Source: a virus (taxonomy: Duplodnaviria; Heunggongvirae; Uroviricota; Caudoviricetes). From it: a DNA stretch of 64,000 nt. The stretch lies in IMG/VR virus record IMGVR_UViG_2740892229_000011; one strand, 5' to 3'. Under the pieces are notes generated by a model. The model was given only the letters and a program-made list of their open reading frames with translations. It made no database searches and had not been told where the DNA came from. A program made the translations under genes and the position numbers. This document shows, one piece after another, positions 1 through 63,237 of the stretch. The first letter of the stretch is position 1; every line of letters begins with the position of its first letter.

Positions 1-1549
1 TTCGTATGTTTCTTTGTTTGGGGTTAACTCTATTGGTGATATTAAAAAAGCTCTTTATCATTGTGCCACACCAATTAATGAAAAGAAATATAAAGAACTA
101 ATTTTATCTGAAACGGATCGAACTATGATTCGTTATAGAAATGGGTTTTTGGGATGGTTGAAATACAACTCCTTGTCAAAATTTTTAATACATTTCGGAA
201 AGAACGATTTTTTTGGGTTCAAAACAGATAACCTGCTGTCATCTCTTGAGTATAAATTTGTTAATAATTATTTGGTTTGTATTGATGATGTTGAAAGAAA
301 AGGTAATTCGCTAGAAGTTAAAGAAATTATGGGGGTAATTGATGAATTGGCAAGAAGAAAAGGCTGCAAAGTTGTTCTAATTTTAAATGAAGATAATTTA
401 CATGATGAAACTGCAAAAAAACAGTTTTTAGAGTACAGAGAAAAAGTAATTGATGTCGAAATAAAATACGATCCTACGCCTGAGAAGAACTTACGTAAAG
501 TTTTTTATGAAACTGATTCTGATTTTCTTTTGTTAAAAGTCTTAGCAAATGACTTAGACATTAAAAATATCCGTATATTAAATAAAATAAAAACATCTCT
601 GGTTAATCTTAGGAATGAGCTAAGCTTGGCAGAGGATAAGGTTAGAGAAAGTTTTATCAATAGATTGGTTCTGTTTTCAGTGGTTTACTATTCTGGTGTT
701 CCAGGTGTTGATTATGCCTTGTTTAAAGAATCAATTAAAAACATACATGTATTTGATTACATGTTAGATGATAAAAAGGATGATTCTGTATATTCATTTA
801 TTAATAGTCTTGATATTATTTATGAACGAGCGGAAATTGCTTTCGATGATGACATAGATTTTTATCTCAAGAATGGTTATCTTTCTACTGAAAGCAATAT
901 TCGAGGTATAATAGAAGAAAAAAATAAACAATATAAAGAACACAAGGCTTTATGTGAGGTTAACAATGTTTGGGATATTTTTAGTGACTCATTCAAGGAC
1001 AATGAATCTGAGTTTATTTCTAAGATAAAATGTGTAATTAACGACAATCTTTCACACATACCTGTTGCTCACTTCATAGGCTTGATTGATATCTTAAATA
1101 GATTGGAGATTGATTGTGATAGTTATATAGAGGCATATGCAGATGCCTTTGTTAGCCAAGATGATGCTTATACTGCTTTTCGGAATTTGTATGTAGAGAT
1201 ATTTGGTAACGAAAAGTTAGGTCTGCTAATTCAAAAAAAATTGATGGATAAGAAGCCTGAAGAGACTAATTTAGAGAATGTTTTATACAAAATAATTGAA
1301 GGCAAATTTAATCATAGTGACATAGCATATCTTAACAGTTTCTCTGAAGATGATTATTTAAAGTGGATATTATCCCGCAATCAGGATGCTTTGGATTTAG
1401 TGAGAAAGGGGTTGCTCAGATTCAAAAGTATGCAAGAACTAACAGAAGAACAGCAAAAAATCACGAATAAAGCAATAGGTGCATTAACGAAACTGGCCTC
1501 TAGATCAAGTCTTAACAAACTACGTGTGAGCAGATTGCTTAATAATTAA
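1..1549 (+). CDS. AT-rich cargo gene, 5'-partial (open to window edge); possible P-loop NTPase (KAP/Abi-like) of unknown function
   Basis: Reading frame open from nt 2 to stop at 1547-1549; about 30% GC versus about 50% for neighbours; Walker-B-like hhhhDD motif (LVCIDDVER) near the visible N-terminus; no Walker A in the visible part (expected upstream of window). Confidence 0.45.
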   Translation, partial: SYVSLFGVNSIGDIKKALYHCATPINEKKYKELILSETDRTMIRYRNGFLGWLKYNSLSKFLIHFGKNDFFGFKTDNLLSSLEYKFVNNYLVCIDDVERKGNSLEVKEIMGVIDELARRKGCKVVLILNEDNLHDETAKKQFLEYREKVIDVEIKYDPTPEKNLRKVFYETDSDFLLLKVLANDLDIKNIRILNKIKTSLVNLRNELSLAEDKVRESFINRLVLFSVVYYSGVPGVDYALFKESIKNIHVFDYMLDDKKDDSVYSFINSLDIIYERAEIAFDDDIDFYLKNGYLSTESNIRGIIEEKNKQYKEHKALCEVNNVWDIFSDSFKDNESEFISKIKCVINDNLSHIPVAHFIGLIDILNRLEIDCDSYIEAYADAFVSQDDAYTAFRNLYVEIFGNEKLGLLIQKKLMDKKPEETNLENVLYKIIEGKFNHSDIAYLNSFSEDDYLKWILSRNQDALDLVRKGLLRFKSMQELTEEQQKITNKAIGALTKLASRSSLNKLRVSRLLNN

Positions 1550-1557
1550 GTATTCAT

Positions 1558-1612
1558 GACCTGTTTCTGTATATAAATAATAAGTAACTTATTAAATATA
1601 CGGAAGCAGGTC
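1558..1612 (+). terminator. Stem-loop A: 15-17 bp stem with AT-rich loop, near-identical to stem-loop B at 49601-49657
   Basis: Arms cctgtttctgtatat / atatacggaagcagg; the two mismatches are G-U wobbles only in the plus-strand transcript; sits 9 nt after the stop of the AT-rich gene. Confidence 0.45.
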
Positions 1613-1718
1613 TTTCAAAAGATACCCACCAGAACAACTCCCTTCCGTTTCCACTTCCAAAAACTGCCACCAATCGCTATCATCAGCTCATTGTGATAAG
1701 TAAGTAACCACCTACCAG

Positions 1719-2468
1719 GTGAGCCACATGAGCCAAATCTTTTTCGACACCATCGACAACGACCAGTACGACTTCATGACAGAGTGGAATACCGCTGTTA
1801 TGGATAAGTGGGTTGCTGAAAACATTGGTTTGTCGCGCTGCAAAGACGAGGCTGAACTCTTCGAGACGAAGTGGTTTGATTACCGCGACATGCATCCTCT
1901 CATGGCCACCTGCCTTTTTACGGAGGCATACAAACGTCAGTACTCAAATATCATGCTGACGCACGGTCGCGAACACTTTGAAACAGCTCCGTTCACCACC
2001 GGGTTAAAACGCCTGCCTTATCAGGAGTTGTCGACTGCCAATAAAACGTCTCTATGGAAAGCACGCCAGTTTGCTGACCGCTATTGCTGCTCATACGACT
2101 ACTTTATCTCCACCGTTCTTTCCGCAGCTGCACGACGGCTGTGGGACAAGCTGCCGCGCCCACAGCATTTATGGCAGCCAGAACTGATTGAGATATTTGA
2201 AGAGAAATTAGCCAGACGCGCAACAACCCGTCTGGATGACTCTCTGGTTAGCTTTAAGCATATGGGAGACATGCAGTTCAACCCGATTCAGGAAAGCTAT
2301 TTTGAATGGATTCTGGAGCGTTTGCGCACCATCCCTCGCAGTAAGCGCATACGCGCAATTTTCTCCGCTATCTGGCTAATGGAAATCGTTCCAGAGCGCC
2401 TTATTTCCGCCCACTTTCCAGAAGAACTGGAAGAAGCACGGCGGTTTATTGATCCCCTATCTAATTAA
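1719..2468 (+). CDS. hypothetical protein immediately upstream of the replicative helicase
   Basis: 249-aa ORF, 51 bp upstream of the helicase gene; no recognisable motif. Confidence 0.5.
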   Translation: MSHMSQIFFDTIDNDQYDFMTEWNTAVMDKWVAENIGLSRCKDEAELFETKWFDYRDMHPLMATCLFTEAYKRQYSNIMLTHGREHFETAPFTTGLKRLPYQELSTANKTSLWKARQFADRYCCSYDYFISTVLSAAARRLWDKLPRPQHLWQPELIEIFEEKLARRATTRLDDSLVSFKHMGDMQFNPIQESYFEWILERLRTIPRSKRIRAIFSAIWLMEIVPERLISAHFPEELEEARRFIDPLSN

Positions 2469-2511
2469 CTAATACTAGAAAACAATTTGTTTAAAAAACA
2501 AAGGAAAGCAC

Positions 2512-3852
2512 ATGACCGAACTTTGCCATACAGGACGCGGGCTGTCCGAAGAGTTTGATGAAGATTTCCAGAACAGACTGACGGCATATTTTTGTCGTGA
2601 TCACGAGTTTCTTACTCGTGCGGGAGATCTGGTTGTGCCTAGCCAATTTGCCAATGCGGCCAATGCCATATTGGTTAATATGGTTTCGGGCTATTACCGT
2701 ATGTACAAGAGCGCGCCTTCTTCATCTGCGATTCTGGATATGCTTAAGCGTGCGAAACGCGATAAGACCATCCGTGAGGAACTCTTCCCGGATGTTGTTG
2801 CTGCGTTTAAGCGCATCCTTGCAGAAAAATTGTCTGATACCTCGTACATGGTTGACCAGGTATCCACATTCGCAAAAAGTGTAGCGTTTGATGATGCTCT
2901 GATTAAAGCTGCTGAACTGAAAGAGAAGGGCGACTTTCAGGGGGCGATGGCAATCATGGCCAAGGTTCAGCAGATAGGCTCGAACGAAGCGACCGGAATC
3001 TATGACTACTACACCTCCGCAAGTGAGCGATTGAAAGCGCGTGAATATGAGGCTTCAGAGGAGTATGTGCCAAACAGCATTACAACTGGACTCCCTCTGC
3101 TTGATAGATTGCTGTACCAAAAAGGCTGGGCAAAGCGCGAAATGGTGCTCTTCATGGGTTTTGCTAAATCCGGTAAATCGACCGCAATGGGTGAGTTTTC
3201 CATAAACGCAACGCTTGCTGGCTACAATGTTCTGTATCTCTCGCTGGAGGTTCACACCACCATTTTATCCGACCGTTTTGATGCAAGATTGTCGGAGACA
3301 GAAATGTCCAAGCTGGTGGAACGGCGCGATGAGGTTCATCGTAAGTTGGCAGAGTTGGGAGCCACGAAGGGGATTGGTAGTTTGTGGGTGGTTGAGCGTC
3401 CGTCAGGAAGTATGTCACCGGCAGATCTGGACCGTATGCTTAACAGCATGAAAGCCAACGGCATGGTGCCTGACATGGTTGTTGTCGACTACGCAGATTT
3501 GATGCGTGCCAGTTATGACCTTCGTGATGATCGCGCCAACATTCGTAGTATCTACACCGATTTACGTGCTCTTTATGACAAGCATAACGTTGCTGGAATA
3601 ACGGCATCGCAGACAAACCGTGAAGGTGGCGCGTCAGAAGTTGCCACAATGATGCACGCCGCCGACAACATCGAAAAAGTACGTATTGCTGACCTGGTAA
3701 TAACGATCAACAAAACCGAAGAAGAAGAAGCGAAAGGAGAGGCTCGTCTCTACTTTGCTGGTTCGCGTAACCAGCAGGGAGGGATCAGCATTCGCGTTAA
3801 ACAAAACCTCGAACAAATGCGCTTCATTGAGCGAATCTTAGACGTTACCTAA
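2512..3852 (+). CDS. DnaB-family replicative DNA helicase
   Basis: RecA-like C-terminal domain with Walker A (GFAKSGKST), Walker B (MVVVDYADLM) and the overall DnaB/gp41 layout; conserved TIR AAAGGAAAGCACATG. Confidence 0.8.
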   Translation: MTELCHTGRGLSEEFDEDFQNRLTAYFCRDHEFLTRAGDLVVPSQFANAANAILVNMVSGYYRMYKSAPSSSAILDMLKRAKRDKTIREELFPDVVAAFKRILAEKLSDTSYMVDQVSTFAKSVAFDDALIKAAELKEKGDFQGAMAIMAKVQQIGSNEATGIYDYYTSASERLKAREYEASEEYVPNSITTGLPLLDRLLYQKGWAKREMVLFMGFAKSGKSTAMGEFSINATLAGYNVLYLSLEVHTTILSDRFDARLSETEMSKLVERRDEVHRKLAELGATKGIGSLWVVERPSGSMSPADLDRMLNSMKANGMVPDMVVVDYADLMRASYDLRDDRANIRSIYTDLRALYDKHNVAGITASQTNREGGASEVATMMHAADNIEKVRIADLVITINKTEEEEAKGEARLYFAGSRNQQGGISIRVKQNLEQMRFIERILDVT

Positions 3853-3933
3853 AAAATAAGCGTGGAGAACACCTCCACGCTTGATTCATTGGTGAAACAA
3901 CTTTTCTTTTGCCAAACCACAAAAGAAAAACAC

Positions 3934-5115
3934 ATGAGCCTTTATGTTATATCAACATTTAGGTTGGTAACAATATTGCCTGTTAAAAGTGGAATTATCG
4001 TGAGCGAGCTGAAAGAGTTAATTACCGAATTAGATTTTGAACAATGGTTGGACACTGAAGGTATCGTTTATCGACGTGGAGGCGTGAGTACTCGCGGTCG
4101 TGAAGTGAATATCAAGGAGTGTCCGGTATGCGGCAGCTCCAACTGGAAGGTATATTTCAATCTGACCAGTGGCGTCGGTAAATGCTTCGCTGGTGATCAT
4201 CCCGAAGAGATTCAGTTCAATAAGCTGGTCTTCCTCAAGCACTACAGCGGCAAATCACGACGACAGTTCGAGGAATATGTGCAGAACGCCCTTCTTTCCC
4301 AGGGGTGGGCACCAAAGAAAGAAGAGCTAGTGCTTGCAAGCACAGTCGAGTTAGAGGGGCCAGTTGCACTCCCTCGTCATTACGAACTTCCTATAGATGG
4401 CCGTCTTCCAGACTATCTGGTTGAACGAAATATATCGCCTGAAATGGCAAAGTATTTTGACCTACGATACTGCGTCGAAGGTAAGCACGCCTATGTAGAT
4501 CCGTATACAGATCAGGTTAAAGGACAGATATTCGATATGCGAATACTGATACCGGTTTACGATCTGGATGGGGTAATGAAGACATTTCAGGGACGAGACA
4601 TTACCGGTACAGCAGAACGCCGCTACCTCTTTCCTATGCAGCTTCCAGCTTCAGGTAAGTTTCTCTACAACGGCTATAATGCAGTCGGCAAACAGACTGT
4701 AGTTGTCTGTGAGGGGGCGTTCGATGTTATGGGGGTTAAACGAGCTATTTTTGACGAAGAAACATTACGTGATTACGTGGAACCAATAGGAACGTTCGGG
4801 ATGCATCTATCTGGTAACACCACTCAGGATGCAGAAGATCAGTTAGGCGCGTTCCTGACGCTCAAGGCGCGTGGGTTACGTAATGTGATCATGATGTGGG
4901 ATAGTGAAAAGCAAGCTATACGAAACACTATGGCCGCAGCCAGGCGACTGACCAGTATCGGTCTTAATGTGAAAATTGCATGTTTGGGCGAGGAAGGACT
5001 CGACCCCGGCGATGCGACCCCGGGGCAGATTATCAAAGCCTACTATTGCGCAAAACCTTACTCACGACGGCTTGAACTTTTAAGCAAGGTAAAAGGCATA
5101 GCAGCATTAGTTTGA
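3934..5115 (+). CDS. DnaG-like DNA primase (zinc ribbon + TOPRIM)
   Basis: CPVCGSS..CFAGDH zinc-binding motif; TOPRIM motifs VVVCEGAFDVMGV and MMWDSE; start chosen at internal ATG preceded by the conserved AAAAGAAAAACACATG context (track ORF begins 3862). Confidence 0.75.
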   Translation: MSLYVISTFRLVTILPVKSGIIVSELKELITELDFEQWLDTEGIVYRRGGVSTRGREVNIKECPVCGSSNWKVYFNLTSGVGKCFAGDHPEEIQFNKLVFLKHYSGKSRRQFEEYVQNALLSQGWAPKKEELVLASTVELEGPVALPRHYELPIDGRLPDYLVERNISPEMAKYFDLRYCVEGKHAYVDPYTDQVKGQIFDMRILIPVYDLDGVMKTFQGRDITGTAERRYLFPMQLPASGKFLYNGYNAVGKQTVVVCEGAFDVMGVKRAIFDEETLRDYVEPIGTFGMHLSGNTTQDAEDQLGAFLTLKARGLRNVIMMWDSEKQAIRNTMAAARRLTSIGLNVKIACLGEEGLDPGDATPGQIIKAYYCAKPYSRRLELLSKVKGIAALV

Positions 5116-5797
5116 ACCAGTATTAGTCACGTACACATTGACCGAAAATGATTTAACTTCTGTGTTGAAGTTGTCAGTCATTACCGCGAGGTAGGCATTC
5201 TTGGTATCTCTGAATTGCTTCAGTATGATTTGAACGTTATCGGTGCAAACAAACGAGGTAGCCAGATTGCCTCCTTTCTCTGAAAAATCCTTCAGGAAGG
5301 TGCAGTCAACTTTGCCATCATTAGCGGTGAAGGTAGCATCATCACCCTGCCAGGTAAATGTAGCGTTAACGCCCTTATCAATGGATTTAGCAATAAGTCG
5401 CTGGGTGGCGGATTTTGTTTTGGCTTTGGAAGCCGGCGCTCGATATTTGCCGCTTTCTTTCAGTTCTGCAATGTAATCACAGCCATTTTTATCTTCTTTA
5501 TCACAAGCAGCCTGATAAAGCTCAGCTGCTTTTTTATAGTCTTTTTTAACCCCTTCACCATACTCATACATAATGCCAAGATTTGTCATGGCATCGGCGT
5601 TTCCGAGTTCAGCAGCTTTTTTATACCACTTAATTGCTTCGGCATCGTTGCGTTTAACACCTAAACCGTCATCGTATAAGGTGCCTAATGCGAACATGCC
5701 ATCTGAACTACCTTGATCCGCCGCTTTTTTGTAATAAGTAAAAGCTTTTTTATAACTCTTTTGTACACCTTTACCATATTGGTAATACGCACCAAGA
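5107..5797 (-). pseudogene. Sel1-repeat secreted protein, C-terminal fragment (gene split by IS100-like insertion)
   Basis: Sel1/TPR-like repeats (KWYKKAAELGNADAMTNLGIMYEYGEGV) continue in frame upstream of the annotated Met up to the IS boundary at 5797. Confidence 0.6.
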
Positions 5798-8211
<2,414 letters not shown>

Positions 8212-8444
8212 ATTTTTTGTTCTGTTGATATAGGATGAACAGTTTAGACGCGGCAAGTGTCAAGTGTGCGAAAAATGGTACTTAAATTTAGTTAATATGT
8301 CAGCTTTGTTGATTTAGTTTATGGTCGGTAAAGTTACTAGGAAACTAATAACCATAAGAAATAGTACGTCATTTAATTATTGTGGCACTGCTCGTGTTTT
8401 GATTAACTAATACCTGCGATAAATATAAATAAAGGGAAGCCAAC

Positions 8445-13043: not shown

Positions 13044-13118
13044 GATGGTGTAGCTCAGCGGTAGAGCAGTTGGCTGTTAACCAACTGGTCGGTGGTTCGA
13101 ATCCACCCACCATCGCCA
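13044..13118 (+). tRNA. tRNA-Asn (anticodon GTT)
   Basis: Cloverleaf read by hand: acceptor gatggtg/caccatc, anticodon loop ctGTTaa, T-loop GGTTCGAATCC, 3' CCA encoded; differs from the recalled E. coli tRNA-Asn. Confidence 0.85.
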
Positions 13119-13123
13119 ATTTA

Positions 13124-13210
13124 GGGGAGTTAGTCCGTAGGGGCAGCGGGGTAGACTGTAAATCTACTGTCATTGCGACTCGGGTGGTTCGACTCCATCA
13201 CTCCCCACCA
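13124..13210 (+). tRNA. tRNA-Tyr (anticodon GTA), type II with long variable arm
   Basis: Acceptor ggggagt/actcccc, anticodon stem gtaga/tctac with loop ctGTAaa, long variable arm, T-loop ttcgact, CCA encoded. Confidence 0.7.
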
Positions 13211-13214
13211 AATT

Positions 13215-13290
13215 GCCGGTTTAGCTCAGTTGGTAGAGCGCCTGCCTTGTAAGCAGGATGTCAGCGGTTCGATCCCGTTAACCGGCACCA
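13215..13290 (+). tRNA. tRNA-Thr (anticodon TGT)
   Basis: Acceptor gccggtt/aaccggc, D-arm tagctcagttggtagagc, anticodon loop ctTGTaa, T-loop ttcgatc, CCA encoded; 4-nt spacer from tRNA-Tyr. Confidence 0.8.
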
Positions 13291-13610: not shown

Positions 13611-13697
13611 GGAGAGTAGGGAGCATGGTGCTCAAGCGGTCTTGAAATCCGTCCCATTGTGCAAACGATGATGGTTCGATTCCATTACTCTCCGCCA
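13611..13697 (+). tRNA. tRNA-like element, type II (possible tRNA-Ser, anticodon TGA) with weak anticodon stem
   Basis: Acceptor ggagagt/actctcc, T-arm gatggTTCGATTccatt, CCA encoded, loop cTTGAaa; the anticodon stem is only 4 bp plus a U-U, so function is uncertain. Confidence 0.4.
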
Positions 13698-47275: not shown

Positions 47276-47833
47276 ATGACAACGATTGTTGCAGGCATCG
47301 ATATCGAGTCTACGGGACTGGATTTCCTTGCTGGTCATAAAATTATTGAAATCGCAATTACCCGCTATGAACTGGAGACACAGAGACATATTGATAGTCT
47401 GGAGATGCGTTTTAACCCTCGCAGAAACATAGATCCGAAAGCTCAAGCCGTTCATGGCATTTCATTAGAACAGCTCGCAGCTGAACCTTTGTTGTCAAAT
47501 CATGCCAGCGAAATTGGCGCTTATATGGGGGCATGTAGTGCGTGGATTGCTCATAACGGCGAAGCGTTTGATATACCATTTATTCGACACGAGTTTTCAG
47601 GGTATGGAGTAAGACTGCCAGACGTTCCCGTTATAGATACTATGTTATCGGGATTGTGGGCCACAGAAGACGGTAAACGTCCTCGCCTTGAAGAATTGGC
47701 CTTCTCTCTTGGCTTTATATACGATCATGCCAAAGCACATAGTGCCTTATATGACACAAACTTAATGATGCAATGCTTCTTTAAGGCACGTAATAAATAC
47801 GGATTTTTTAAATTACCCTCTGAAATTGTGTAA
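47276..47833 (+). CDS. DnaQ-like 3'-5' exonuclease (DEDDh family)
   Basis: Exo I GIDIESTG, Exo II HNGEAFDIPFI, Exo III HSALYDTNL. Confidence 0.7.
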   Translation: MTTIVAGIDIESTGLDFLAGHKIIEIAITRYELETQRHIDSLEMRFNPRRNIDPKAQAVHGISLEQLAAEPLLSNHASEIGAYMGACSAWIAHNGEAFDIPFIRHEFSGYGVRLPDVPVIDTMLSGLWATEDGKRPRLEELAFSLGFIYDHAKAHSALYDTNLMMQCFFKARNKYGFFKLPSEIV

Positions 47834-47993: not shown

Positions 47994-48803
47994 ATGAGTT
48001 CGGTTGAAAATGTAATGACAAATGATGATCTGGATGAGCTGACAGCCATGTTGCAATCACTTGATGAACCAGTAAAAAAAGCTGCACAGGTTGAAAATAC
48101 TGATGATATTGACGATCTGCTTCTCGGCCTCGATGCTGGCGTAGCCATGAGTTCTGATGATGTTGCCGAAGAACTGTTCAATGAAGAAAAAGCAGGTGAT
48201 TTCAGCTCCGCTTTAAATGAGTTGGAGTTAGCTCATGAGCCTATAAACGTAATTAAGGCTGAAAGTGTTGAATCTGCCGAAAACGAGCCAGAACAATTGG
48301 GATTTATTGAGGTTGAAGAGTGTGTTGAGGTTAATGATGAATTAAAAGTTCAACAGTCAAATGATAGCAATACAAATAAAATAGCTCGTACTGCAAGAGG
48401 TCCTCGTTTTACTTTAAGTGATAAAGATGATTTGTTTTTCAATAAAGCAGGCTTAGAAAAAGATATTTTCTTAGACGCTTACGAAAACGCGCCTGTCAAA
48501 GCAAAGGATAAGATATTAAACCTTCTTAATTGGTTTAGCGGAGGTCCAGATATTAGTGTTTACACGGTAATTTCCATGAGACACCTTCTCACAGAAAAGA
48601 AGGCTACAAGTAATAGTATTAAGATTGCTTTAATGAGCAATCCAGAAAAACCGTATCCGCTTAACACTGCGTCAACTCAGGCTGGGCAAATGATGGCTGT
48701 ATTTCCAGCTACAGGAATTGCTGTTAGAGACGGTGGAAATCTAACATTGAACGAAGAATCACCGATCGTTAAGAAGTTTGTCGCGGAGTACACTATTGGA
48801 TGA
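47994..48803 (+). CDS. hypothetical protein with strongly acidic N-terminal half
   Basis: About 40% GC (lower than neighbours); N-terminal 120 aa rich in D/E; lies directly upstream of the Dam-like MTase gene. Confidence 0.45.
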   Translation: MSSVENVMTNDDLDELTAMLQSLDEPVKKAAQVENTDDIDDLLLGLDAGVAMSSDDVAEELFNEEKAGDFSSALNELELAHEPINVIKAESVESAENEPEQLGFIEVEECVEVNDELKVQQSNDSNTNKIARTARGPRFTLSDKDDLFFNKAGLEKDIFLDAYENAPVKAKDKILNLLNWFSGGPDISVYTVISMRHLLTEKKATSNSIKIALMSNPEKPYPLNTASTQAGQMMAVFPATGIAVRDGGNLTLNEESPIVKKFVAEYTIG

Positions 48804-48985: not shown

Positions 48986-49579
48986 ATGATTGCAGCCGAA
49001 AAAATCAAACAGCGAAAGCGCGACAACTCTCTTCGTGACCTCTGGAGAACACCTGATTGGCTGTTTTCTGCCATTCAACGTTATCTTGGAGTGACATTTG
49101 ATGTTGACGTTGCCTGCAACAAGGACAATGCAAAGCTGCCTATTTTCATAGGCGTTGAGCGCGATGCTTTGAAATCTGAATGGGGGCAGCCAGGTACAAT
49201 TGCCTTCCTCAATCCACCCTACTCCAAAATCTCCCCCTGGATTGATGCGGCTATACGTGAGCAGGCTCGCGGAGTTACAACAGTGATGCTAATTCCTCAA
49301 TCCCTCGATACAAAGTGGTATGAGCGTGCAACAGAGTGTGCGAATGAGACGATTATTCTGTCTGGTGGCCGCGTAGCGTTTGTCGAGCCTGACGTCAATT
49401 TGGGTCAGGTAGAAGTAAACATCAACCCCGGTGGCAGTATGCTCGTTGTTTTTCGAGGATTCTGTCAGGACGCTGGGCACTCTATAAGCAAGATCCCTTT
49501 GGACGTCATGAAAAGTCTGGGAGGGTATGATCCTGCGAATGTGATCAGGAAAAAAAGACCATCAAAGAAGGCTGCTTAG
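48986..49579 (+). CDS. Phage-type DNA N6-adenine methyltransferase (Dam-like)
   Basis: FLNPPYSKI (NPPY catalytic motif), about 197 aa, phage Dam-like architecture. Confidence 0.75.
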   Translation: MIAAEKIKQRKRDNSLRDLWRTPDWLFSAIQRYLGVTFDVDVACNKDNAKLPIFIGVERDALKSEWGQPGTIAFLNPPYSKISPWIDAAIREQARGVTTVMLIPQSLDTKWYERATECANETIILSGGRVAFVEPDVNLGQVEVNINPGGSMLVVFRGFCQDAGHSISKIPLDVMKSLGGYDPANVIRKKRPSKKAA

Positions 49580-60913: not shown

Positions 60914-61673
60914 TCAATACAATAAAATGGCCCCATTTGGATGGGGCCGGTAACAACTAGCATTATGGGCGCTGGTTGACGTACTCAATGATCGCTTCGA
61001 TGATTGCGAACATAGGCGGCACGATTTTGAAAAGTAAGTTAAGCACTATAGGCCTCACTTAGTTTTATCGCACCTAGCTGCAAATACCTTTGAGCTTGCC
61101 TTTGCAGTTGCAATATCTGTAGTCGCCAGATACTTACGGCACGATTTCGAGTTAAGGTAAGGTTTTAGAGTCACCAAAAACCTGGACTTAAATCTTCTTT
61201 GAGAACAACGATGTTTGGTAAATGGTCATTATTACCTAGCATGACGGCTCAACGTTTCTTGATGAATCCAGTACATTCGGTTAATCTTAGCTCAGTCGCC
61301 AGATACTTATGGCTCAGGAACAGAGGCGCAAACTCTGTTTCCTTTTAAAAAGCCCAGCCTAGTCAACTGGGCTTTTTTAATGTCCGTTTTTAACCAAATG
61401 TACCCACAATACCGCAACATCAGTGTCTTGCGAATTAAGATAGGATTTATAGAGACTATGTGCAAGTGCATAACTTTGTGGATAACTCGTAAAGGAAAAA
61501 GTGGTTTCCGCGGACATTAGTTCAGACAAGGAGTCTGGGAAAGTCAATGGGAAGTAAAAATTTGTTAAAAATAACGTTTGTTGGAATTGTATATATTTAT
61601 GCCTTTCAATAGTTAGCATCTTATTAACATCTTTTTTAAGAGATAGAGTTCAAAAATATATAGCTTCAACATA

Positions 61674-61693
61674 TACTGTATGCATATACAGTA
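61674..61693. promoter_or_regulatory. LexA (SOS) box
   Basis: TACTGTATGCATATACAGTA, a near-perfect match to the consensus TACTGT-N8-ACAGTA; 16 bp upstream of the UmuD'-like ATG. Confidence 0.7.
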
Positions 61694-61709
61694 TTAAGAG
61701 GCGAGTATT

Positions 61710-62099
61710 ATGGGCTTCCCTTCTCCTGCGGCGGATTATGCTGAGAGCCGTATTTCTCTTGATCAGCAGATAATTAGACATCCTTCAGCGACCTACTTCA
61801 TGAGGGCGGCTGATAGTCATCATCGTGAGGGAATATTGCAGGGTGCATTGCTGGTGGTCGATTCCTCACTGACTCCTGTTGATGGATCTCTTCTTGTATG
61901 TGCTCTGGATGGGGAATATCGCGTAAAAAGATACCGGAAGTATCCACGTCAACATCTGGAGGATTTAAGAACTGGTAAGAAGGAAGCATTGCCAAAGGAT
62001 GATGATGGATGCACGGGCAGCAATGCCGTGTTTGGTGTGATCACTCACATTATCAACGACGCAAGAAGTGGCGAGTTTGATGATTGTCCTGTGATGTAG
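61710..62099 (+). CDS. UmuD'-like (HumD-like) S24-family protein encoded directly in the processed form
   Basis: Begins M-GFPSPAADYAE, i.e. at the position equivalent to the UmuD Cys24/Gly25 cleavage site; in-frame stop 15 nt upstream prevents any N-terminal extension; Ser and Lys catalytic positions present; no umuC-like gene follows. Confidence 0.75.
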   Translation: MGFPSPAADYAESRISLDQQIIRHPSATYFMRAADSHHREGILQGALLVVDSSLTPVDGSLLVCALDGEYRVKRYRKYPRQHLEDLRTGKKEALPKDDDGCTGSNAVFGVITHIINDARSGEFDDCPVM

Positions 62100-62136: not shown

Positions 62137-63237
62137 TCACACTGCGCGGAATGCGATTTCGCCAGGTATTACTTCACCTTGCCAATACATTTGGGCAGCA
62201 ACGCGATCTGCGAGGTCACGATAAATAGCCGTAAATTCGCTATCTGGACGACTAATAACGGTTGGTGTTCCGTTATCCAGATCTTCACGAAGAGAGATAT
62301 GAAGTGGCATTTGGCCTAACAACTGCGTGTTGTATTTCTCGGCCAGTTTCTGTGCGCCACCGGTGCCAAAAATTGGCTCGTGATGACCGCAGTTACTGCA
62401 AATATGCACACTCATGTTTTCGACGATACCTAGTACCGGCACTTCGACTTTTTCGAACATCACAATGCCTTTCTTCGCATCGATCAGCGCGATGTCTTGC
62501 GGCGTAGTTACCACAACCGCACCAGTTACAGGAATGTTCTGCGCCAGCGTCAACTGAATATCACCAGTGCCCGGCGGCATATCGAGAACGAGATAGTCCA
62601 GATCAGGCCATAGAGTTTCCTGCAACATCTGCATCAGCGCCTTGCTGGCCATCGGTCCACGCCACACCATTGCATTGTCGTCGGTGACCAGATAACCAAT
62701 AGAGTTGGTTGCCAGGCCATGAGACATGATAGGTGCCATGTGAGTACCGTCAGGTGAGGTTGGACGTTGGTTTTCCGCGCCCAGCATGGTTGGAATTGAT
62801 GGACCATAGATATCGGCATCCAAAATACCAACTTTCGCACCTTCAGCAGCCAAAGCCAGTGCCAAGTTTACTGCTGTGGACGATTTGCCTACACCGCCCT
62901 TGCCTGAGCTTACGGCGATAATATTCTTAACACCATTAATGCCTGGTTGGTTTTTGACGCGCTTAAGCGTGGCAATGTTGTACGACAGCTTCCAGTCAAT
63001 AGCCTTTGCGCCAGTGATACGGAGCAGATCACCACTACATTGCTCTTTCAGGTCTTCAAAAGGCTTATTCCACACGAAAGGCATGATTAGTTCGACATGC
63101 AGTGTGTCATCCATCAACGCAACATGGTGTAACGCTTTAAGCGTAGTCAGGTTGTGTTTCAGGGTTGGGTGCTGAAAATTAGCCAGCGTACCGGCTACCA
63201 TTGCTCTCAGGGCATCCGGCGATTTGGACTCGCTCAT
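62137..63237 (-). CDS. mrp: Fe-S cluster carrier ATPase Mrp/ApbC
   Basis: Full-length near-identity to recalled E. coli Mrp (P-loop GKGGVGKSST, CSNCGH motif). Confidence 0.95.
   Translation of the reverse strand: MSESKSPDALRAMVAGTLANFQHPTLKHNLTTLKALHHVALMDDTLHVELIMPFVWNKPFEDLKEQCSGDLLRITGAKAIDWKLSYNIATLKRVKNQPGINGVKNIIAVSSGKGGVGKSSTAVNLALALAAEGAKVGILDADIYGPSIPTMLGAENQRPTSPDGTHMAPIMSHGLATNSIGYLVTDDNAMVWRGPMASKALMQMLQETLWPDLDYLVLDMPPGTGDIQLTLAQNIPVTGAVVVTTPQDIALIDAKKGIVMFEKVEVPVLGIVENMSVHICSNCGHHEPIFGTGGAQKLAEKYNTQLLGQMPLHISLREDLDNGTPTVISRPDSEFTAIYRDLADRVAAQMYWQGEVIPGEIAFRAV

Follow-up and report, generated by a model that had tools for sequence, protein, structure and literature searches.

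The DNA analyzed here is a 64,000-nucleotide stretch (the window) of the viral record IMGVR_UViG_2740892229_000011, and the gene under study, which almost certainly encodes an NTPase of the KAP family, runs off its left edge. By megablast, the left part of the window is an SSU5/pHCM2-like phage-plasmid of Enterobacteriaceae that matches the phages CMS-2020a, Cyrano, and SSU5, as well as plasmids of about 110 kb in complete Escherichia coli genomes. Plasmid NZ_CP027358.1 is 100% identical to window positions 1-5797, and its corresponding region with flanks (L001, in which window position 1 is L001:8001) was used to complete the gene. Within the window, positions 2-1549 of the plus strand form a single open frame of 515 codons (codons 50-564), followed by TAA at 1547-1549. 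A first-pass annotation of this DNA had described more than 511 amino acids with the start outside the window. The 511 figure belongs to a mechanical open reading frame (ORF) that begins at a TTG at position 14, and the start does lie outside; the outside part, however, is no large N-terminus but only the first 49 codons (L001:7855-8000, 146 bases), which sit just beyond the edge and encode the Walker A sequence GDWGVGKT. The complete ORF (L001:7855-9549) specifies a protein of 564 amino acids, WP_033803577.1, which carries the RefSeq label "P-loop NTPase fold protein".

On its left the KAP gene is preceded by a parA-like ATPase gene and a gene for a parB-like protein of 117 amino acids. On its right follow genes for a 246-amino-acid protein (1728-2468, plus strand), a dnaB-like helicase (2512-3852, plus strand), and a primase (4000-5115, plus strand), as annotated in L001; the 246-residue protein has no Pfam family and is context rather than cargo. 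The sharply low guanine-plus-cytosine (GC) content that had been noticed at the left edge is beyond chance: it is 0.305 at 1-1549 versus 0.463 at 1550-64000, or z = -7.1 against 1219 other windows of the same size (1549 bp; mean 0.462, standard deviation 0.022, minimum 0.400). The gap persists at the codon level, since GC at third codon positions is 0.25 in the KAP gene and 0.46-0.56 in the flanking genes, so the difference in composition does not disappear when codon usage is considered.

Downstream of the stop codon lies a long hairpin (1558-1612, plus strand) with a 17-bp outer stem followed by TCTTT, which folds at -28.7 kcal/mol (z = -6.1 versus shuffles). The structured hairpin reported earlier is therefore real, but it is an element of the backbone and not part of the acquired cargo, because it is conserved in sister elements that carry other genes at this place (nine of the nine SSU5-like elements compared, spanning five different cargos). 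At its 15 pairs, pairing survives 14 one-sided changes (Watson-Crick or G-U in the plus sense) and is broken in a single cell, with no compensatory change, a pattern compatible with a role of the plus-strand RNA, for example as a terminator insulating the replication genes. The hairpin forms the right border of a slot that is bounded on the left by the parB-like stop codon. On that left side each cargo has its own small hairpin after the parB-like stop; the one in L001 folds at -18.9 kcal/mol (z = -4.7).

The completed protein bears the sequence marks of a KAP NTPase. It matches the Pfam family KAP_NTPase (PF07693; Aravind et al. 2004) over residues 12-254 with an E value of 1.9e-5 and 24.5 bits (gathering cut-off 20), and 34 of 35 diverse homologues match the same family, the best at 6.8e-14; Pfam nSTAND3 reaches 16.4 bits, below its cut-off of 27.2. 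In the protein database, at least 1603 full-length homologues of 565-595 amino acids were present, nearly all with a precomputed PF07693 match. The Walker B type of the KAP family is hhhhDD-x-[DE]R, and its Walker A type is GxxGxGK[ST]; the protein has both, as G23DWGVGKT30 and L140VCIDDVER148. The latter is the LVCIDDVER sequence that had been picked out as Walker-B-like; it is encoded at 272-298 (plus strand) and falls in a block where an alignment of 35 homologues shows no variation at C142, D144, D145, E147, and R148. Also invariant in that alignment are G23-x-W-G-x-G-K-T30, Y194-R-E-K197, N238-x-R240, K244, G341, W504, N554, and R557, while N178, at the end of the strand 172-177, is conserved in at least 90%. 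From the alignment and the secondary structure of the model described below, N178 may be a sensor-1-like residue, and Y194-R195-E196-K197 and N238-x-R240 are candidate arginine-finger and sensor-2 positions (386-574, plus strand). Of the earlier suggestion of a KAP-type or Abi-type NTPase, the KAP part is supported by Walker A, Walker B, and a KAP_NTPase score above the gathering cut-off; nothing here indicates an abortive-infection mode.

Among defense profiles, the sole PADLOC matches were three models of the candidate system PDC-S49. The best (E 2.3e-22) aligns residues 3-223 with profile positions 8-214 of 624, and a weaker one spans residues 4 to about 374-388 at about 1e-5. All 35 homologues match PDC-S49 and no other defense profile, the best at 2e-29, with the same partial coverage throughout the family. 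The PADLOC models for PifA (at E <= 1), QatA, and PDC-S20 gave no match, NCBIfam gave zero matches for the full protein, and a sequence search of the Protein Data Bank with the full protein returned nothing meaningful (best E 0.56). In PHROG there is a full-length match to phrog_4740 (E 3e-164), whose function label is "unknown".

An AlphaFold2 model was built on the 35-member alignment, whose first row (P0001) differs from the window protein by D235G, and has a mean predicted local distance difference test (pLDDT) score of 83.6. The model shows, from residue 1 to about 258, a lidded alpha/beta NTPase domain of AAA+/STAND-like type, so the completed ORF does not lack an NTPase fold. Between Walker A and Walker B there is an insert (residues ~76-133) in which pLDDT falls below 50 for residues 97-126. 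The rest of the protein is all-helical, which bears out the long helical C-terminal region predicted from the partial frame: DSSP assigns helices only across residues 209-562, and the alpha-helical extension C-terminal to the NTPase domain is present as in KAP proteins generally. The C-terminal half is solenoid-like (residues 260-564; 632-1546, plus strand), without an enzymatic fold, and its structural matches are of solenoid type only. Overall, the best structural matches are initiator-type AAA+ proteins, namely Cdc6/ORC, TnsC, MuB, and DnaA, a generic likeness at 10% identity over about 200-230 of the 564 residues. Foldseek against the viral structures of BFVD gave nothing at E <= 0.001. 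No effector fold was recognizable in the protein, whether nuclease, protease, TIR, SIR2, or membrane effector.

Transmembrane helices within the NTPase domain are typical of many KAP members, though not of all. A hydropathy scan of the window protein found none there, nor was a transmembrane segment indicated elsewhere, the maximum 19-residue Kyte-Doolittle value being 1.35 at residue 271 (no dedicated transmembrane predictor was used). Hydropathy never reaches membrane-like values, which predicts a soluble protein and sets it apart from Tmn, EF_KAP, and many other KAP members. The C-terminal region was also considered as a promiscuous module borne on other N-termini, and this was ruled out. 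A phmmer search of 1.84 billion representative proteins with that region found 324 matches, nearly all of 530-610 amino acids with the region in the same C-terminal place, and we conclude that it is family-specific rather than shuffled.

The position of the gene within the element is variable in content and constant in its surroundings. Exactly this place is taken by family members in L005 (a second E. coli lineage), L004 (Citrobacter), and L003 (Klebsiella). Their identity to the window protein is 76%, 44%, and 39%, respectively, as against 98-100%, 87-94%, and 82-93% for the flanking proteins. A GC content of 0.30-0.32 is common to all KAP alleles among the E. coli, Citrobacter, and Klebsiella elements, versus 0.47-0.55 in their own flanking genes. 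Other sister elements carry different genes in the slot. In phage Cyrano it holds a DUF2971 protein of 267 amino acids (L002:7180-7983, plus strand), and in SSU5 two proteins, SSU5_035 and SSU5_036 (L006:5074-6118, plus strand), together with a DUF2971 protein. Plasmid pECAZ162_2 has a 352-amino-acid protein encoded opposite to the KAP orientation (L013:3255-4313, minus strand), and p503829_100 and the ET300 plasmid have a 255-amino-acid GIY-YIG protein, likewise on the opposite strand (L014:3553-4320, minus strand). In PADLOC the GIY-YIG protein matches PD-T4-3 (E 1.3e-23), and the DUF2971 proteins match the candidate system PDC-S31 (E 3e-41 and 2e-33). PD-T4-3 has also been reported in SSU5-group elements of E. 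coli and Shigella by an independent DefenseFinder survey (10.1101/2025.09.12.675607). The 352-residue protein, SSU5_035, and SSU5_036 have no Pfam or PADLOC match and are, given their position in the slot, further defense candidates.

The flanks of these different cargos are the same genes. The 246-residue right-flank protein is 100% identical in elements with other cargo, and the accessions WP_160378290.1 (left) and WP_001717320.1 (right) are common to several of them (L001, L013, and L014); in Cyrano and SSU5 the flank proteins are 81-100% identical. Since elements share flank accessions, the slot cargo has been exchanged recently relative to the divergence of the backbone. The backbone, defined by the genes for the 246-residue protein, the dnaB-like helicase, and the primase at >= 80% coverage, was present in 246 of 5426 complete E. 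coli genomes, and the KAP gene in 28 of these (allele 1 in 21 and allele 2 in 7), in every case on a plasmid (28/28). Elements that occur naturally without the KAP gene imply that copy number, stability, and induction of the phage-plasmid do not depend on it. The KAP slot is a variable hotspot used in sister elements by a known defense gene, PD-T4-3, or a candidate, PDC-S31, and these observations support the view that the KAP gene is exchangeable accessory cargo in a slot used for defense genes. The earlier description of the gene as a horizontally acquired moron stands as far as low-GC accessory cargo in a swappable slot is concerned. Strict moron status is unsupported because no promoter of its own was found: a sigma-70 scan gave 8 sites versus 10.1 expected from shuffles, none of them in a suitable position ahead of the ATG.

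The two E. coli alleles differ mainly in one half of the protein. In 60-residue windows, identity is 83-97% as far as about residue 330, passes through a transition, and is 53-60% from about residue 360 onward; the divergent half (residues ~330-564) corresponds to window positions ~842-1546. Every catalytic position is retained. Synonymous divergence (dS) between the alleles is 0.13-0.72 in the NTPase half versus 0.66-1.35 in the C-terminal half, and the ratio of nonsynonymous to synonymous divergence (omega) is 0.09-0.40. Because omega is below 1 throughout and dS rises alongside nonsynonymous divergence (dN), positive selection on the allele difference was rejected, and the difference reflects recombination rather than demonstrable diversifying selection. 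By these sequence comparisons the alleles form a recombinational mosaic under purifying selection, and the pairing of a conserved NTPase half with a C-terminal half open to exchange would fit a motor-plus-specificity-domain design. A 99% identical variant, P0013, is recorded on 928 Enterobacteriaceae contigs, Shigella sonnei among them, and in 1142 indexed collection blocks; 24 of 24 P0013 contigs read, representing three distinct places, share the slot context.

Outside phage-plasmids, homologues with 22-42% identity were present in 73 genomes representing species of Proteobacteria, Cyanobacteria, Verrucomicrobiota, and Bacteroidota, together with one planctomycete and Trueperaceae. Their settings vary. 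The Salmonella salamae homologue lies inside the conjugation module of an integrative and conjugative element (ICE), that of Oleispira adjoins IS66, that of Pragia is a lone island amid housekeeping genes, and one on a metagenome contig adjoins an integrase. No conserved partner gene was found across these contexts. At 34 of 34 loci the KAP gene has a lower GC content than its locus, with a deficit that ranges from about 0.01 to 0.22 and is clear in most; AT-richness seems to be a property of this family and not only of this insertion. As examples against 12-20 kb of surroundings, homologues had values of 0.26 versus 0.45, 0.34 versus 0.52, and 0.42 versus 0.57, and a few differed by 0.01-0.04.

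Taken as a whole, the data argue that the gene is a probable single-gene defense NTPase that would protect the host and its phage-plasmid from superinfecting phages, a reading to which we assign a probability of roughly 0.6; the protection possibly extends to other mobile DNA. This reading is best supported because the KAP motifs and profile, the PDC-S49 matches, the accessory status (28/246), and a slot used by PD-T4-3 and PDC-S31 all point the same way. Several findings weigh against it. The match to PDC-S49 is moderate, with the best-scoring model covering only the N-terminal 220 residues, and PDC-S49 is itself one of 145 candidate defense systems (Payne et al., 10.1101/2024.01.29.577857). 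No promoter of the KAP gene stands out beyond chance. The alleles differ through a recombined C-terminal half and not through demonstrable positive selection. Among 136 ORFs at the 34 loci (the two nearest on either side of each homologue), PADLOC gave few defense matches in a scan run without background control: RmrA in two ORFs, and PDC-S54, PDC-M41A, PDC-S70, and methyltransferases among the families with one each. Finally, an effector domain was not found in the protein, and the output step is speculative.

In the mechanism that we infer, whose individual steps are less certain than the defense role itself, the protein would act as a single-gene, trigger-sensing switch in the manner of KAP and STAND sensor NTPases. 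It would be produced while the element is in its plasmid (lysogenic) state, probably through read-through transcription of the par operon. Its family-specific alpha-solenoid C-terminal half would bind a phage-derived protein or complex, and binding would switch the AAA+/STAND-like NTPase domain, in which both Walker motifs, the sensor-1-like Asn, and the conserved arginines are intact. NTP-dependent oligomerization or remodeling could then block phage development. Because no effector domain is recognizable, the output is probably the NTPase-driven engagement itself, in which a phage or host complex would be sequestered or taken apart, or nucleotide consumed, and not the action of a fused toxin. 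A more ambitious form of this proposal is tentative and on balance unlikely. It holds that the protein is an effector-less soluble KAP NTPase with a mechanism new to defense, ATP-driven binding or disassembly, by way of its family-specific solenoid domain, of a phage or plasmid complex for replication, partition, or assembly, with specificity set by the swappable C-terminal half; the par-to-hairpin slot would then be a general site of defense exchange, and the 352-residue protein and SSU5_035/SSU5_036 new systems.

Competition between mobile elements is a rather unlikely alternative, in which the KAP gene would exclude related phage-plasmids, conjugative plasmids, or transforming DNA. Carriage by phage-plasmids, and by an ICE within its conjugation gene set, would suit such a role. 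So would the behavior of Klebsiella pneumoniae Kp1604: when its SSU5-like plasmid p2 (CP085480) was cured, plating of three lytic phages rose 10-100-fold and transformation efficiency (plasmid uptake) also rose, with no gene assigned (PMC8969562). CP085480 was not among the KAP-gene-carrying plasmids in PLSDB, and we claim no link to the Klebsiella homologue. The identifiable alternatives in the slot, however, are anti-phage systems or candidates, and the KAP proteins that have been tested act on lytic phages (PMC13552941); sequence itself does not discriminate phage targets from mobile-element targets.

If the protein does act in defense, it might do so by abortive infection, with recognition of a phage protein leading to membrane damage or ATP loss and cell death. 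We regard this mode as quite unlikely. Its precedent is PifA, the classical plasmid-borne KAP NTPase, which is encoded near the replication and partition genes of F and whose exclusion of T7 is abortive. The window protein shows no sequence kinship to PifA beyond Walker A and leaves the PADLOC PifA model unmatched; it has neither a transmembrane nor an amphipathic membrane segment, the 19-residue hydropathy peaking at 1.35; and EF_KAP, the sole KAP defense protein so examined, is not abortive (PMC13552941).

It is improbable that the gene is cargo of another kind, such as a counter-defense factor, an addiction or toxin-like selfish gene, or a modulator of host physiology. The variable regions of phages also hold anti-defense genes, a site beside plasmid-maintenance genes would suit an addiction module, and the failure to identify an effector domain agrees with such roles. 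On the other side, no antitoxin-like partner ORF is present (antisense ORFs within the gene are at most 60 amino acids); the size of the protein, its conserved NTPase residues, and its kinship to KAP and PDC-S49 fit sensor-type immune NTPases better; and PD-T4-3 occupies the same slot in sister elements. Least probable is a replication or partition accessory, be it an ORC/Cdc6-like initiator, a loader acting with the DnaB-like helicase and primase, or a ParA helper: the initiator-type structural matches, and the location between parA/parB-like and dnaB-primase genes in the same orientation, would accommodate it, but that structural likeness is generic to AAA+ proteins, 218 of the 246 backbone-positive E. 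coli genomes (89%) lack the gene, as do the phages Cyrano and SSU5, its place between flanks of the same accession can be filled by unrelated genes that in some cases run in the opposite direction, and homologues stand alone in chromosomes and in an ICE with no replication genes nearby.

KAP NTPases were proposed for defense two decades ago, and their anti-phage action was first shown recently in Enterococcus (PMC13552941). With the window protein there is a membrane-free member, encoded by a single gene, that occurs naturally in E. coli and Shigella, hosts for which genetics and phage panels are at hand; its two natural alleles, differing mainly in the C-terminal half, would amount to a ready-made specificity swap. 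The DefenseFinder survey of the SSU5 group found two major clades without any defense system and does not list a KAP-type system (10.1101/2025.09.12.675607); since P0013 is on 928 contigs, the defense content of these clinically common elements may be under-counted.

The element varies at other positions as well. The position after the primase gene may be a second cargo slot. In E. coli it holds a Sel1/TPR-repeat protein (window 5107-8256 region), in Klebsiella (L003 10930-12096), Citrobacter (L004 10891-11961), and SSU5 (L006 10573-11538) different hypothetical proteins, in the ET300 plasmid (L015 8179 onward) DprA and a RecQ-family helicase, and in Cyrano no opposite-strand gene. In the window, the Sel1/TPR gene is split by a copy of IS100, an IS21-family insertion sequence at ~5798-7751 with istB at 5864-6646 and istA at 6643-7665 (both minus strand). 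Both halves (5107-5697 and 7732-8256, minus strand) still match Pfam Sel1 repeats, and the gene is intact in the otherwise 100% identical NZ_CP027358.1 (L001 13107-14252). Upstream of the par genes, L001 (3509-3742, outside the window) and SSU5 carry the gene for the exclusion lipoprotein Cor. A GNAT (KacT-like) toxin/DUF1778 antitoxin pair also lies upstream of par in Cyrano (L002 5039-5873), Citrobacter (L004 3319-4116), and Shigella-type elements; L001 has two hypothetical genes at that position instead.

Farther into the window, a tRNA array at 13044-13290 and 13611-13697 (plus strand) comprises Asn(GTT), Tyr(GTA), and Thr(TGT), plus Ser(TGA); it varies between sister elements, as Cyrano has Asn-Thr-Ser and the fetched stretch of SSU5 Asn only. 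A DEDDh/RNase T-type exonuclease gene at 47276-47833 (plus strand; PADLOC DEDDh, E 9e-25) is followed by an ORF of 269 amino acids at 47994-48803 (plus strand; GC ~0.37, no family match) and a Dam-type N6-adenine methyltransferase gene at 48986-49579 (plus strand). A second low-GC patch at 61200-61700 (~0.36) contains a minus-strand ORF of 80 amino acids and lies beside genes for an S24 (LexA/UmuD-like) peptidase at 61710-62099 (plus strand) and an Mrp/NUBPL-type ParA-family ATPase at 62137-63237 (minus strand).

Among known or candidate immune NTPases, the KAP protein can be compared most directly with PDC-S49, for which no mention by name was found in the literature searched. The PDC-S49 profiles, at 619-629 positions, are near the protein in length, and both are single genes with an N-terminal KAP-type NTPase. 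The C-terminal half is divergent, the best model being confined to residues 3-223, and no family member matches better than 2e-29; from these sequence matches the family would be at most a sister clade of PDC-S49, and not clearly the same family. Moreover, the PADLOC candidates were discovered through a location in or next to BREX, DISARM, or type I restriction-modification loci, whereas the neighbors here are par and replication genes.

PifA of plasmid F, which has a role in T7 exclusion (PMC13552941), shares a KAP_NTPase domain (E 3e-43 for PifA), carriage on a plasmid, and proximity to replication and partition genes. It differs in having 741 amino acids and an operon with pifC, and in matching the PADLOC PifA (E 2.9e-290), QatA, and PDC-S20 models, none of which the window protein matches. 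As a useful homologue of PifA the window protein was rejected, since BLASTP aligned the Walker A segment only (E 0.08). QatA and Tmn are likewise KAP-family NTPases of anti-phage systems (PMC13279940; 10.1101/2022.08.21.504612). QatA acts with QatBCD, whereas the gene here has no qatB, qatC, or qatD neighbor and its product no QatA match; Tmn has two transmembrane helices inserted in its P-loop domain, where the window protein has the non-membrane insert at residues ~76-133. Unlike STAND/Avs-type immune NTPases and RdrA of RADAR, it has neither an N- nor a C-terminal effector domain, and its Walker A begins at residue 23.

A functional parallel comes from KAP NTPases with uncharacterized C-terminal regions that protect Enterococcus faecalis from phages, for which the Walker B motif and the C-terminal region are both required; EF_KAP protects equally at low and high multiplicity, that is, not abortively (PMC13552941). 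EF_KAP and its metagenomic relatives are of Firmicutes origin, EF_KAP contains transmembrane helices, including one within its NTPase domain, and the C-terminal regions are likened to that of the window protein by architecture only. Nonetheless, each consists of a KAP NTPase followed by about 300 residues without a known domain, and each is a one-gene system carried by mobile DNA (PMC13552941). According to a long-standing proposal, the KAP domain controls how complexes held by the alpha-superhelical part of the protein are put together or taken apart (summarized in 10.1101/2022.08.21.504612).

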